From the NCBI RefSeq assembly GCF_013122565.1, contig NZ_CP053258.1: a stretch of 64,000 nt of DNA. One strand, written 5' to 3'. This document shows, in pieces, positions 30,303 to 39,300 of this stretch. The stretch's first letter is position 1; every line of letters starts with the position of its first letter. The position numbers were made by a program. Origin of the DNA: Escherichia coli (GTDB taxonomy: Bacteria > Pseudomonadota > Gammaproteobacteria > Enterobacterales > Enterobacteriaceae).

Positions 30303-33300
30303 TGATTCAGGAGTGCGTTATGGACAGTCTCAATCTTAATAAACATATTTCCGGCCAGTTCAACGCCGAACTGGAAAGTATCCGCACGCAGGTGATGACC
30401 ATGGGCGGCATGGTGGAGCAGCAGCTTTCTGATGCAATCACCGCGATGCATAACCAGGACAGCGATCTGGCGAAGCGCGTCATCGAAGGCGACAAGAACG
30501 TCAACATGATGGAAGTGGCGATCGATGAAGCTTGCGTGCGCATTATCGCCAAACGTCAGCCGACGGCGAGCGACCTGCGTCTGGTTATGGTGATCAGTAA
30601 AACCATTGCCGAGCTGGAGCGTATTGGCGACGTGGCGGACAAAATCTGCCGTACTGCGCTGGAGAAATTCTCCCAGCAGCATCAGCCGTTGCTGGTAAGT
30701 CTGGAGTCGCTGGGCCGTCATACCATCCAGATGCTGCACGACGTGCTGGACGCGTTCGCGCGGATGGACATTGACGAAGCGGTACGTATTTATCGGGAAG
30801 ATAAAAAAGTCGATCAGGAGTACGAAGGTATTGTTCGTCAACTGATGACCTACATGATGGAAGATTCGCGCACCATTCCGAGCGTACTTACCGCGCTGTT
30901 CTGTGCGCGTTCTATCGAACGTATTGGTGACCGCTGCCAGAATATTTGTGAGTTTATCTTCTACTACGTGAAGGGTCAGGATTTCCGTCATGTAGGCGGT
31001 GATGAGCTGGATAAACTGCTGGCGGGAAAAGACCCGAAAGAGTAGTGACGACAGCGGCTACGGATGAACCGTGGCCGCAATGTTGATTGCAAGTTGTCGA
31101 TGAAAATTATTGTCCTGAGAGTATGTATTAGAACGTAAAAGTTTGACTATTTCTTCCTTTTTTATAGATCGCGGTTGTATCTCTGCATTAACAAAAACAT
31201 ATCATACAAAATTTTTATGCGTGTAATTAATTCGTTTAGTGAATTTAAAAATACAAATCCATAATTCTCGCTATACTTTTTATAAATATATTCCTAATTT
31301 TAAAGATGTAGTTTTTCCCCATTTTTCACCTATGCTATTTTTGCCATTATTTTTGATTTAAAATATTAAATGGTGGCACTAATGAGTAACATGGAAGTCA
31401 GAAAGTTAACAAAAAACTTACTACTATCGACCTCACTATTCTGTCTTCTCGCCATGGGAAATACCGTTAGTGCATCAACAGATCAGGTTACTCTAACCGT
31501 CGTCGGTGAGGTTATTCCGGGTTCTTGCACGCCTTCATTAGATAACGGCAGTAAAATTGATTACGGTAGTTTTCCCCGTACCACGTTAACTAAGACCTCC
31601 AACCAACTGGGCGTTAAAAATATTAATTTAAGTATTTCCTGTTCGGCAGCCGCAGTGGTCGCCCTGTATGCCACCGATAACCGTAAAACCAGTATTGCCG
31701 ATGGCATCAGCGTTGAAAAATCCTGGGTTGGTAAAACAACGGTTACTGATAAAAAATCGCTGTTCGGCCTGGGTACCACAAAGGACGGTGAACAGATAGG
31801 GGCATTTTCATTAGGCATTGATTACAACAATATGGTTTTTGATACCGGTACAACGAAAACGCTGATAAAAACCGATAACGTCAAAGCTGACCCGATTGTC
31901 TGGCGCTCCAACTCTGATGGCGCAATAGTCGATCATGACTCAACAGCAGGTAGTTGGATTGCTATGACTCCCGGCACCCCCTCTACTACGCCTTTCTCTT
32001 TTAAAACCGCCACAATTCCTCTTATCGTGAGTGCGGCGGTCAGAAAATACAGCGCGATGACCATTACGGAACCCGTAAAACTCGATGGTAATGTAACGTT
32101 AAGCCTCGTCTATTTATAACCATCAGGATGGAAAAGGTTATGCGTAAAATAATATTCGTTATTGCCCTGACAGTAACTATGATTGGCGTACAGTCGGCAC
32201 ATGCTGATGAGGCAACAACGGCCCTGATGGTCAAAGGAAAGATCATCCCCGGCAGTTGTACGCCAACCCTTAGCGATGGTGGAAAAATAGATTACGGAAC
32301 GATTTCATCGTCTTCGTTGTTTGATGACTCGAATAGCCTGGGCGTCAAAAATATGACGCTGCATATATCCTGTAGCGATAGCGGTTATGTTGGCTTTACC
32401 GCAACAGATAATCGTAGTGATAGCTTGCCGGAACATATTGAGGTGGTTAATGTTAAGAATAATGATGATTATCGTTTGTTTGGGTTAGGGAAAACGGCAG
32501 AAGATAAAGTTATTGGTGCATTTACCATTGATGTAGACACAACAAACATTAAGGTGGATGGAAAGAATTATGGTTTTGTTTATATTTTATACTCAACCAA
32601 TGGTACATCATGGCTATCCAATACTGTAAATATTCGCAGTTATAGTGATAAAGCCCCTAATATTGAAGCACTGATTAATAAAACGGGTGTAGGAGTAAGA
32701 GCATTTAAGGAAGCTGAAATTCCTTTGGTTATTAATACCTCCATTGTCGACGCACGAGATCTTTCAGTAACCGATAAAGTTATGCTTGATGGGAATGTTA
32801 CCTTTAACATTATCTATCTGTAATTACGTTGATAAGAGCCAGAACAAAAATGAAAATAAACCATCCAGTTTTATTTCCCGCCATTGTCTTCAGCGTGCTG
32901 CTTGTTAGTCAGCCTGGTTGGACCGAAGAGGGTAATGCCACATTAGAAGTTACTGGAACCTTAACGCCTGGTATTTGCACGCTACAACTTGCAGACGGCG
33001 GAATTATTGATTATGGCACAATCTACGGAATGGGGCTGACAGACACTTCCAATCAGTTGGGAGTGAAAAATATCGATCTGACCATTCATTGCGACAGCCC
33101 AACGATGGTTGCGATCTATTCTACCGATAATCGGGTTGATACCCAGGCAAATGTCGTAGTCGAGAAGTCATGGAACACTGGCGATACTGCGAGTACGCCA
33201 AACAAACGGCGTTATGGATTGGGCACCACCTCTGCGGGTAAACCTATTGGCGCTTTCACTATTGGCATCGATCTCGAAAATGTGCAGGTTGACGATCGCC

Positions 33301-36300: not shown

Positions 36301-39300
36301 TTACCGGCAGGGCTGTTATTCCGGCGCTTTCTGCCTGGCAATCCTCTCGCGTTGAAATAGAAATGGCGTCGTTGCCTAAAAACGTAGATGTGGATAACGG
36401 CCTACAGATGATTAATCAGGGGCGCGGGTCCGTTGGCGTGGTGGCGTTTAAAACGCTGACGCAGCGGCGCGTGTTGTTAAACGTGCGTTTGCCGGAGGGC
36501 GCATTGCTGCCAAAAGGCGTGGCGCTGATGGATGCGGACGGAAACTACCAGACGACCAGCGCCGATGATGGGGTGGTTTTTTTGAATGATACCAACGGCA
36601 AAAATAGCCTATTCGTTCATGATTCCGGCATGAAAGAGGGGTGCCGAATTGATTTTGAATTGGCAGAAGAAACCCGCGCCGATATTTTTTATGAAACGAT
36701 AGATGCCGTCTGCAAGCCAATGGGGGAACGATGAAAGTCTGGAATTTTCTTTTATCTTTAAGCGCAGGGGCAATGCTACTACCCGGCGTGCTGACCTCAG
36801 CATACGCTGAAACGGTGTGCACCTCGTCTCTTAGCGTAAAAACGTTAAATTATGGCCGGTTAACCCGCAGTGACATCGCTGCATCCCGACAAATGGAAAA
36901 TGGTCTGGCTGATGCAATAACGACAAAACAGGCGTTGTTAACGGTAAACTGTTCGCAACCTACGCGTCTGCGACTCTATTTTGCAGGAAACCACAACGAA
37001 AAAAAAATGTTCAGTCTTGGTCCCGCAGCTGCTTTTCGGATGACGGCAGGGCATGCCAATGTTGATGGGCAAGCCGTCCAGCTTCTTAGTCACCCTCAGG
37101 AAGAAGCGGCAAAAATAACTGACAGCGAGATGCAACAATCGATCAACCCCGGACACCAACTGCTTTTTATACAAAACAGCGAACTTAAAGGATCGGCATT
37201 TTCTTTACAGCTAACCGTCCAACCCCTGCTGGCGCACACGTTATTTTCTGTGGCGGACAAAACCGTTTTACAGTCAACGGTGAATATTGTCGCCGAGGCA
37301 CAGGACTAAGGCCATCACCTTTTCCTTACAGGCAGGCCATCAAGAACCTGGCGAAATAGCCACACAAACTCACCTCGAAACTACCCCCAGTACATTGCAA
37401 ATACATTATTTCATTTGAATTATTTTTCTTTTAATGTGGTTCCCGCCATAAAAAACATTATTGTTATTCTTTTCATTTATATCGTTACCCGCACAGAAAA
37501 TGAAAAAGAAAACAAAAACCAGGGTAAAAGCCCCATATCGAAACATACAAAATGAGCGATTTTTTACAGTATTCATAGGTGGTTTAGTCATAATCGTAGC
37601 AAACCAACATCCAGTTATGCTTTTTTAAGACAAATCGGCAATGTGTTGTGCTCGGGCGAATAAATATTGTGTTCAGGAGAAATTATTATGGCTATATCAT
37701 CATATAGTACAGTTACAGATAAATTTGCTACGCTGACTAAAATACCAGATGAAAATAATGGATTGCAAAAAAAATCAGAAAAATTTTGTTTGTCTGTTGG
37801 TAATGAGGAGAAGTATTCAATAACCCATAAAGATATAACAAACCTTATAGCTGGTGATAGACAATCTTTTCTTAAACTAACTCTTTGGGAATTTATACTC
37901 GATCTCTTTCCCATGTATCATATAAAGGAGGCTAAAGAAAGAATTGTAGAATTTGTAACGAAAACTGAGGACAAAGTTAAGAGATTTGAGATAATTAAAT
38001 CTCTCGCTATTCCAGAAGAAAAATGGCGCTTTAGTACGACGACAGAATTTACAGTAGATGAGAATAAAGACATTATTGTTAGTAGAGTATTTAAAATAAA
38101 TATTAACTCGAAAGATAATCATAATAATGCTGAAGAAAATACAATGCGTTCTGTATTATCAGAAGAACGCAATTATAATATTTATAAACATGATATTCAT
38201 TTTGATGAGAAGGCTTTTCAATCAGGGATATTGAAAATGCAGTTCCCTAATGATAATGAAAAACTAAGCGTATATTTAAAAAATAAAATCCCCTTTGAAA
38301 ATATGACAATTGATTTATCTGCACTGAAAAAAGATGTTCTGGTATCGCTAAAACAGTGTCACTTTAAAAATATGACATTCACTGGTAATATATCTTACGA
38401 GAACCTTAATGGCCCAGTATTTGAAAATTGTTTTTTTGAGAGTTGTAATTTCGAGAATGTGTCCCTTGTTGGCTTTGATAAAGTGACCTGTGAAAGCTAT
38501 GACGTTCTTTGTAACGTAAAACCAAATAATAAAATACCGATTTACGGTATGTTTAAAGGGTGTTTTTTGTATCAATGCGAAATGAAAAATTTCAAGATAG
38601 AGACATCAAAAATATACTCTATAAATCAAGATCCCCAAAGAGGGGATAAGAAAGTCGGTGCATATCTGTTTATGCAGTCATTTGTATATGCAAGTAATCT
38701 TCAAGATGCAGTGTGTAAAGAAGCAAGTGTTATTGCAAGCAGTTTATTATCTTGCAATATAGCAAAGCTTAATGGTGTTGGAATGGATTTCATAGAAACT
38801 TCGTTTTATAGAAAAACTCGCGGTAGTTTTAGAGATAGTAATAATTTTTATGATTGTGATTTTCGTTATGTTAATATGACATGCAAACGAGATGGAATTC
38901 GTGAAGATTTACGAAATTATGATCCCAGAAAATATTTCGGGGAAAGTGAAAATAAACTTAATCTGGATAAAAATCTTTTAGATGTTATCCATGATGATAT
39001 TTTCCAAGATATGAAGACTCATTATAATATAAATGACGATATAGATAAACATATAAATCTTAATCATTGCTGTTTATATGGTGCTTGTTTGGGCGAGTTA
39101 ACCGGTGGAAATCCATTGTATGATTGTGCTATTGATATTTATACCACCAGGTTAAGTGGTAATCTTGCTGCAAACACTCAGGTTAAAATTCCTGTTTATA
39201 TGTACAATAAAGGAGCTATAGCTAAAAATGATATGTTACCTTTCATGAAAAAGATAACGAACATTTATTCACGGATAGAAGGTATTTATGAGCATAGCAA

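Follow-up and report, generated by a model that had tools for sequence, protein, structure and literature searches.

The beta class of chaperone-usher systems is the Nuccio-Baumler usher clade that contains YhcD and StjB; we take its definition from PMC5216030, PMC9238391 and PMC4654587. Its published representatives are yhc and Salmonella stj (PMC5216030, PMC9238391), and Stj is the only named beta fimbria of Salmonella enterica subsp. enterica (PMC9238391). Pili of this class have never been characterised, with fibre, function and structure all unreported, and in the earlier view YhcE had no predictable function and beta fimbriae had no tip subunits (PMC5216030). Here we describe an operon of six genes next to phoU in a 64,000-nucleotide window of Escherichia coli DNA (NCBI RefSeq assembly GCF_013122565.1, contig NZ_CP053258.1; all positions are those of the window). 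We put a probability of about 0.8 on the reading that these genes form an intact operon which encodes a chaperone-usher surface fibre of the beta class (YhcD/StjB type). It is a rare, intact addition to a known, uncharacterised class and not a new type of system.

Gene content, usher and chaperone

Six co-directional open reading frames (ORFs) occupy positions 31382 to 37309 on the plus strand, and a separate gene call on the identical public contig gave the same six starts:

W1, 31382..32119, + strand: 245 residues, DUF1120 pilin with signal peptide, N-terminal donor strand, Cys pair and C-terminal ...VYL
W2, 32140..32823, + strand: 227 residues, DUF1120 pilin paralog, 39% guanine plus cytosine (GC), faster evolving
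W3, 32850..33575, + strand: 241 residues, DUF1120 pilin paralog, with its differences from Salmonella enterica subsp. indica (S. indica) in two patches
W4, 33600..34301, + strand: 233 residues, PapD-like periplasmic chaperone of the beta (YhcA) type
W5, 34311..36734, + strand: 807 residues, outer-membrane usher, full length, of the beta (YhcD) type
W6, 36731..37309, + strand: 192 residues, YhcE-family protein with predicted pilin fold and Cys pair, predicted tip/cap subunit

An earlier note, made by reading this DNA, had drawn the same six genes and called them a chaperone-usher operon; the ORF list and the separate gene call confirm the first point, and Pfam and NCBIfam domain matches the second. 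The profile comparison it had proposed gives matches far beyond chance (rounded, E 4e-25 for DUF1120, 9e-26 for PapD_N and 4e-96 for Usher). Spacers of 20, 26, 24 and 9 nucleotides separate the genes from W1 to W5, and the ATG of W6 overlaps the usher TGA as ATGA (4 nucleotides). A typical Sec signal peptide can be read in the sequences of all six products. The operon genes have a GC content of 39-50%; it is 52-54% in the core genes on either side and about 30% in the downstream island. No inactivating lesion was seen in usher or chaperone, both of which span their family profiles end to end. Gene content, family membership and intactness are directly established.

The usher W5 matches the Pfam families PapC_N (E 2.7e-10), Usher (3.9e-96, model positions 2-549 of 549) and PapC_C (7.6e-07). 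It scores 930 bits on the NCBIfam model NF011832 (cutoff 723) over profile positions 23-801 of 801; on the same model YhcD reaches 1273 bits and the type 1 usher FimD only 201. W5 is 43% identical to YhcD. In a set of 5.8 billion protein clusters, two relatives reach 87% and 74% identity to it and the next ushers do not exceed 43%; the best match labelled Salmonella enterica is only 39% identical. Phylogenetic placement, which the earlier note had also suggested, was carried out as a neighbour-joining (NJ) tree of 51 ushers, and it sets the usher beside the YhcD clade: the window, S. indica and one metagenome contig form a clade of their own, sister to that of YhcD and far from FimD.

Gene for gene, the operon is homologous to gltF-yhcA-yhcD-yhcE-yhcF of E. 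coli K-12. W1-W3 are 26-36% identical to GltF and YhcF, the order chaperone, usher, YhcE-like gene and the 4-nucleotide overlap with the usher are the same, and YhcD and YhcA pass the same NCBIfam subfamily models as W5 and W4. Unlike yhc, the operon belongs to a distinct, deeply separated sub-lineage of the NJ tree, has three subunit genes upstream and none downstream (yhc has one on each side) and lies at phoU and not at gltD; K-12 yhcE is split by IS5, whereas the operon is intact. Because the usher and chaperone subfamilies, the tree and the gene-for-gene homology match this published representative, sequence comparison places the operon in the beta class, as a deeply diverged member. The best family of the usher is the YhcD subfamily, and membership of an archaic (sigma) or alternative (alpha) system (Csu, Ecp, CFA/I) was not found. 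Window proteins match NCBIfam models numbered PRK15301-15304, which we suspect derive from the Salmonella Stj operon, a point that could not be confirmed. According to the literature, Stj, with the usher StjB, is of the same usher class as the operon (PMC9238391). The class is as poorly characterised as the earlier note had supposed (PMC5216030).

Most of about 50 loci with usher homologs share one layout: none to three subunit genes, chaperone, usher, a YhcE-like gene, and none to two further subunit genes. Across related loci the YhcE-like gene usually overlaps the usher stop, and one to five subunit genes per operon are usual in the class. Citrobacter youngae also has three subunit genes upstream and none downstream, which are not one-to-one orthologs of W1-W3. 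In Erwinia persicina and E. rhapontici, the usher and the YhcE-like gene of beta-type operons are separated by one more subunit gene and one more chaperone gene. The more distant loci of Providencia and Moellerella have the YhcE-like gene upstream of the usher and the chaperone downstream.

The chaperone W4 matches Pfam PapD_N (8.9e-26) and, weakly, PapD_C (0.01), scores 299 bits on NCBIfam NF007392 (cutoff 183) over its full length, is 52% identical to YhcA and contains the motif NPSPYIV. Its best matches in the PDB are classical chaperones (Caf1M at 5e-13, DraB, SafB, PapD and FimC); CsuC, EcpB and CfaA are not among them at E <= 1e-3. The invariant Arg8/Lys112 carboxylate anchors of classical chaperones with a short or long F1-G1 loop (FGS/FGL) are absent in W4, where the residue aligned to Caf1M Lys139 (PapD Lys112) is Pro. 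When 48 beta chaperones were aligned with FimC, Pro stood at the Lys112 position in all 48 and Arg at the Arg8 position in none. Four other residues, K105, R106, Q128 and R169 in W4 precursor numbering, are at least 90% conserved in the same set. Beta chaperones have been described as lacking the classical anchors and as having residues analogous to CsuC-type anchors, with Gln at donor position P0 (PMC4654587). Going by Fig. S9 of PMC4654587, R106 (strand F1 region) and R169 (domain 2) may correspond to the non-classical CsuC anchor, in which an Arg of strand F1 is paired with Tyr/Arg of domain 2. By its aligned residues, W4 shows the beta-class pattern, with the classical anchors absent.

The archaic system offers a further comparison. 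Acinetobacter Csu genes run csuA/B-A-B-C-D-E, that is, three subunit genes, chaperone, usher and tip gene. The operon has this same gene order, and the lack of classical anchors described for beta chaperones (PMC4654587) is confirmed for W4. Unlike W6, which has a single pilin-like domain, CsuE is a two-domain adhesin, and the predicted folds of W1 and W6 match classical pilins best.

Pilin subunits and the YhcE-family protein

The earlier note had named DUF1120, correctly for all three paralogs: Pfam DUF1120 (PF06551) matches each at E <= 0.001, with the best value for W1 (3.9e-25). W1-W3 are 32-42% identical to one another (E 1e-35 to 1e-55; 38% for W1-W2 and 42% for W1-W3). When aligned, all three carry PGxCT, LGVKN, TDNR, IGAF and LDGNVT together with a penultimate Tyr; from the motif skeleton proposed earlier, only IxCS and FGLG fail to hold throughout, being IHCD and YGLG in W3. 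Each paralog keeps a donor strand (alternating hydrophobics before the first Cys) and the C-terminal strand LDGNVT..VY(L/I).

At 50% identity the DUF1120 family falls into 911 clusters (E <= 0.001), with matches that cover the whole mature protein, about 214 residues, beyond the 116-residue Pfam model. Two Cys (C18, C56) and two Gly are invariant in 148 members, with near-invariance of the penultimate Tyr, one Trp and one Pro. The family profile has weak matches in the PDB to FimG (3.6e-4) and a P-pilus subunit, and these cover the signal peptide, the donor strand and the A strand. No solved structure of a DUF1120 protein is in the PDB, and a literature search on DUF1120 gave nothing relevant.

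An AlphaFold 2 (AF2) model of mature W1 has a predicted local distance difference test score (pLDDT) of 94.3 and a predicted template modelling score (pTM) of 0.88. Foldseek matches it in the PDB to FimA, FimG, PapA, PapE and similar proteins at probability 1.0, and all of the top 39 matches are chaperone-usher pilins or adhesins. The TM-scores come to about 0.5-0.6 with the smaller target as the basis of normalisation and to about 0.4 with the query, so the model would contain a classical pilin core plus roughly 60-70 extra residues. As modelled, the DUF1120 subunits have the classical pilin fold in an elaborated form. The earlier statement that they do not look like classical FimA/PapA pilins is therefore true of the sequence only, since the W1 model matches the FimA/PapA fold. 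W1, the first gene and the most conserved subunit, is probably the major subunit.

W6 is 24% identical to the reconstructed K-12 YhcE over its full length (E 6e-10). A word-indexed search for its homologs gave only three proteins; the family was rebuilt from genes 3' of usher homologs, collected from related loci in 100,044 species genomes. No Pfam family, DUF1120 included, matches W6, and on NCBIfam PRK15301 it scores 51.6 bits, under the cutoff of 226. Compared by hhalign, the W6/YhcE family aligns with the DUF1120 family at 98.6% probability (E 4.8e-16); the 182 aligned columns start at the first Cys and reach the C-terminus, and the sole large N-terminal gap is the DUF1120 donor strand (L-x-V-x-G-x-I-x-P). 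Mature W6 begins ETVC... and YhcE EC..., leaving 1-4 residues before the first Cys. The distance from the hydrophobic core of the signal peptide to the first Cys has a median of 8.5 residues in 36 YhcE-like proteins, against 22.5 in 78 DUF1120 proteins, so the missing donor strand is a rule throughout the family. The profiles suggest that the YhcE family is best described as a DUF1120-like sister family.

The AF2 model of W6 has a pLDDT of 91.4, and Foldseek matches it to FimG, FimA, PapA and the pilin domain of PapG at probability 1.0. Both this match and the hhalign result bear out the earlier listing of the 192-residue protein as a fourth subunit. If the model is right, W6 is a pilin-fold paralog. 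It lacks the N-terminal donor strand, and so could accept a strand but not donate one. By the logic of donor-strand exchange, a protein without a donor strand would be the first subunit assembled and would come to lie at the distal end, and we predict that W6 is a tip cap.

There are precedents for such a part. The adhesins FimH and PapG have the pilin fold, lack a donor strand and are found at the tip of the fibre. The afaD gene lies directly downstream of an usher gene, as the W6 gene does. W6 resembles AfaD/DraD, AggB/AafB/HdaB and SefD (FGL/gamma3) in its single pilin-like domain and predicted tip role; the likeness is functional and positional only, as AfaD-type tip invasins have no detectable sequence relation to W6, are absent from its top 50 Foldseek matches in the PDB and belong, unlike the operon, to a different usher class. 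The major subunit's N-terminal extension completes the single-domain proteins HdaB, AafB, AfaD/DraD and SefD at the tip (PMC5029526). If W6 sits at the tip, this would contrast with the earlier view of beta fimbriae as tipless (PMC5216030).

Cassette, leader and surrounding DNA

Comparison by blastn with E. coli strain 88-3493 delimits the operon as a cassette. That strain has 91 bp in its place, and positions 30000-31047 and 37356-40187 align; the left junction lies directly after the phoU stop codon. The features beyond the genes are as follows:

Cassette, 31048..37355, + strand: 6,308 bp, made up of the leader, the six genes and 46 bp
Leader, 31046..31381, + strand: 336 bp, AT-rich with 30.4% GC, starting after the phoU stop (31045)
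Hairpin, 31054..31078, + strand: found by a terminator-like scan, 10 pairs of which 8 are G-C, 3' of the phoU stop

How widely the operon occurs at phoU, a check named in the earlier note, can now be stated. None of 5,426 complete RefSeq E. coli genomes has it at megablast sensitivity; it is found in a rare E. coli lineage and in S. indica. The 90% identity cluster of the usher has three NCBI E. coli members, which differ by 1-9 of 807 residues and show no lesion. In S. indica the phoU-yieH site is likewise occupied by these six genes, in unchanged order, and all six are intact in both hosts. Amino acid identity between the two copies is 77-92%, and nucleotide identity is 86.9% over 31350-37309. 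The S. indica operon stands directly between phoU and yieH, whereas in the window three low-GC genes of an effector island follow the operon.

The ratio of nonsynonymous to synonymous divergence (dN/dS) between the window and S. indica is 0.08-0.42 (0.08 for W1, 0.42 for W2 and 0.33 for W3), which points to purifying selection on the operon genes. W1 is the most conserved subunit, with 90% amino acid identity. W2, W3 and W6 evolve fastest, and their differences cluster in a few windows of the C-terminal half, as expected for exposed surfaces; in W3 the identity drops to 0.50 and 0.40 in two windows of 20 residues. Synonymous divergence (dS) is 0.25-0.40 in five of the six genes and 0.69 in W1, and reaches 0.55-1.85 in the flanking pstC, pstA, pstB, phoU, yieH and adeP. 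Because the operon dS is below that of the flanking core genes, the operon copies appear to share a more recent ancestor than the two host genera, and we regard vertical inheritance from the Escherichia-Salmonella ancestor as less likely. The cassette likely reached both hosts, or was exchanged between them, by homologous recombination through the conserved flanks.

Two other origins were considered and rejected. A mobile element or site-specific insertion would leave traces that are missing here: the cassette junctions share no 8-mers, direct or inverted, and the window ORF list and the annotated strain have no integrase, transposase or tRNA gene between phoU and yieH. As to a plasmid origin, none of 72,556 plasmids matched the cassette by blastn in distant mode. 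On a Logan contig of SRR24146879 lies a third relative of the operon (74% identity for the usher, 62% for the YhcE-like protein), which adjoins an acrZ-like gene and not phoU; the cassette is therefore not confined to a single chromosomal site.

The earlier note had described an AT-rich leader of 336 bp after phoU, and position, length and composition are as it said. The leader shares two conserved AT-rich blocks with that of S. indica, TAATTAATTC at 31224-31233 and TATAAATATATTCYTAAT at 31281-31298, and the rest of the S. indica leader aligns poorly. The hairpin, partly conserved in the alignment with the S. indica locus, is likely the phoU terminator, with a weak T tail. We presume that the leader is a promoter and silencing region. 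Silencing of the H-NS type is plausible given the AT-rich base composition and the analogy with other cryptic E. coli fimbrial operons. The phoU neighbour also raised the idea of Pho regulation, which was rejected: the best site in the leader has 5 mismatches in 14 positions, and 381 of 500 shuffles equal it. Across 28-48 kb no structured RNA matched Rfam at the gathering threshold.

The host, E. coli in the broad sense, probably belongs to a divergent Escherichia lineage. In the pst-phoU region its best identity is 98.7% (5,421 complete genomes); for the tnaA/mnmE/yidC region (52000-60000) the best among 5,426 complete E. coli genomes is 95.7%, only 765 genomes cover at least 80% of it, and the best matches are soil and wild-animal isolates. 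A 728-residue ORF at 54277-56463 in that region corresponds to an annotated effector of the type III secretion system (T3SS) of the ShET2/EspL2 family.

Downstream of the operon, 37688-44748 (about 30% GC) holds ORFs of 872/879 residues, of 395 residues with pentapeptide repeats (minus strand) and of 802/808 residues. Their homologs in 88-3493, at 94-98% nucleotide identity, are annotated 'type III effector protein', 'pentapeptide repeat-containing protein' and 'T3SS effector EspY4'. No NCBIfam model matches the two large effector-like ORFs. Positions 37874-38617 and 42526-43215 share about 600 bp at 63% identity and a 91-bp stretch at 77%, so these two ORFs are distant paralogs. Imperfect copies of about 100 bp (74-79% identical) lie at 40012-40531 and 44800-44897, around the 3' ends of the effector genes and beside yieH. 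On the K-12 map, we take the effector island to occupy the place of the bgl operon and yieL-cbrBC. In 88-3493 the lpf-O113 fimbrial operon lies upstream of pstS, where the window (about 24322-27505) has glmS directly followed by pstS. With lpf-O113 on one side and the cassette on the other, the pst operon is flanked on each side by an insertion site for fimbrial operons. Escherichia and Salmonella share a recombination hotspot in the phoU-yieH interval, which can hold the bgl operon, the EspY effector island or the fimbrial cassette.

A predicted fibre and rival readings

We infer the assembly of a fibre, the order of its subunits, the tip role of W6, a ligand and silencing along these lines. 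Sec signal peptides would take all six products to the periplasm, where W4 would bind each subunit by donor-strand complementation and anchor the subunit C-terminus by beta/non-classical residues, not by Arg8/Lys112. W5 would form the assembly pore in the outer membrane. W6, having an acceptor groove and no donor strand, would enter first and become the distal cap, possibly a binding tip. W1, W2 and W3 would polymerise behind it by donor-strand exchange, with W1 as the probable major subunit and W2 and W3 as minor or adaptor subunits. The AT-rich leader would probably keep the operon silent through H-NS-type repression under most conditions. For the class as a whole, we tentatively suggest, at slightly under even odds, that beta-class pili are a hybrid in which classical pilin folds and a classical usher are combined with non-classical chaperone anchoring and a YhcE cap that starts every fibre.

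Several points weigh against the reading of a beta-class fibre operon. A beta-class fibre has been shown by no experiment, and deletion of yhc in a strain of enterotoxigenic E. coli (ETEC) gave no adhesion phenotype (PMC5216030). The NJ usher tree has no bootstrap and was built without StjB and without alpha, kappa, pi and sigma reference ushers. A scan of the leader found no sigma-70 consensus, the whole region being at or below shuffle expectation, and no operon-encoded regulator gene was found. The tip role of W6 follows from donor-strand exchange logic, its C-terminus has no penultimate Tyr such as the other subunits have, and monomer models cannot tell whether its acceptor groove is open.

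The leader and the ETEC deletion also bear on an unlikely alternative, in which the operon is intact but permanently silenced in this host and of no effect, a passenger of recombination at the phoU hotspot. Such a cryptic operon would fit a leader of 30% GC with neither consensus promoter nor regulator, and yhc, whose loss had no adhesion phenotype in ETEC, is itself regarded as cryptic in K-12 (PMC5216030); absence from the 5,426 complete genomes also marks the operon as dispensable for the species. It fits less well with six genes intact in two hosts at a dS mostly of about 0.3-0.4 and a dN/dS of 0.08-0.42, with three E. coli copies that have accumulated a few usher differences and no lesion, and with two leader blocks conserved between hosts. 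Silence in the laboratory is, moreover, normal for functional fimbrial operons. Rather improbable, in our estimate, is that W6 is no tip subunit but an accessory protein that stays in the periplasm or with the usher, binds chaperone or usher (for example as assembly initiator, plug-release factor or inhibitor) and is never exported. Its translational coupling to the usher would suit a stoichiometric usher partner, and the lack of both the C-terminal motif and a Pfam DUF1120 match speaks for the same idea. Against these stand its signal peptide, predicted pilin fold and conserved pilin Cys pair, its homology from end to end, donor strand excepted, with polymerising subunits, and the position of FimH and PapG. 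Known pilin-fold proteins without a donor strand sit at the tip (PMC5029526).

That W1-W3 are alternative major subunits giving antigenic or functional variation, as the earlier note had suggested, is a weak proposal and one we find improbable. Donor strand and acceptor motif are present in all three, and W2 and W3 evolve faster than W1 (dN/dS 0.42 and 0.33 vs 0.08), with differences in patches of the C-terminal half. These paralogs, however, are old (32-42% identity), each has a one-to-one ortholog in S. indica, and their genes stand 20-26 nucleotides apart in one operon; no invertible element and no internal promoter signal above background was found among them. In one tightly spaced operon without a switch, W1-W3 are presumably co-transcribed. 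Several co-transcribed subunits with complete polymerisation signals, in a class where one to five subunit genes per operon are usual, as in heteropolymeric pili, make a heteropolymer of one major and several minor subunits more likely, to judge from the sequences, than switchable antigenic variants. We give very little credence to the view that DUF1120 proteins are soluble periplasmic proteins and that the operon builds no polymer. It goes back to the historical annotation of GltF, which in K-12 is still labelled 'periplasmic protein GltF', and can point to a beta-class fibre never having been seen (PMC5216030). DUF1120 proteins are, on the other hand, always encoded beside chaperone and usher (about 50 loci), and they combine a predicted pilin fold with a donor-strand sequence and a zipper motif at the C-terminus.

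The reading of an intact beta-class operon changes no concept, and its relevance is moderate and for specialists. Because the operon is present in very few genomes, it is marginal for general E. coli biology. What is added here is a predicted pilin fold for DUF1120, the recognition of the YhcE family as pilins that lack a donor strand and have a predicted tip role, the confirmed residue pattern of the chaperone, the boundaries of the cassette and a locus in common with S. indica. Two predictions extend to the whole class: the YhcE-family protein would cap the tip as a pilin that has no donor strand, and the chaperone would use non-classical anchoring residues. The cassette is a clean, intact example of the beta class under purifying selection, and at only 6.3 kb without a regulator gene it should be easy to clone. 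If the hybrid reading is true, it would offer a compact model in which the structure and function of a class of pili that has never been seen could first be described.

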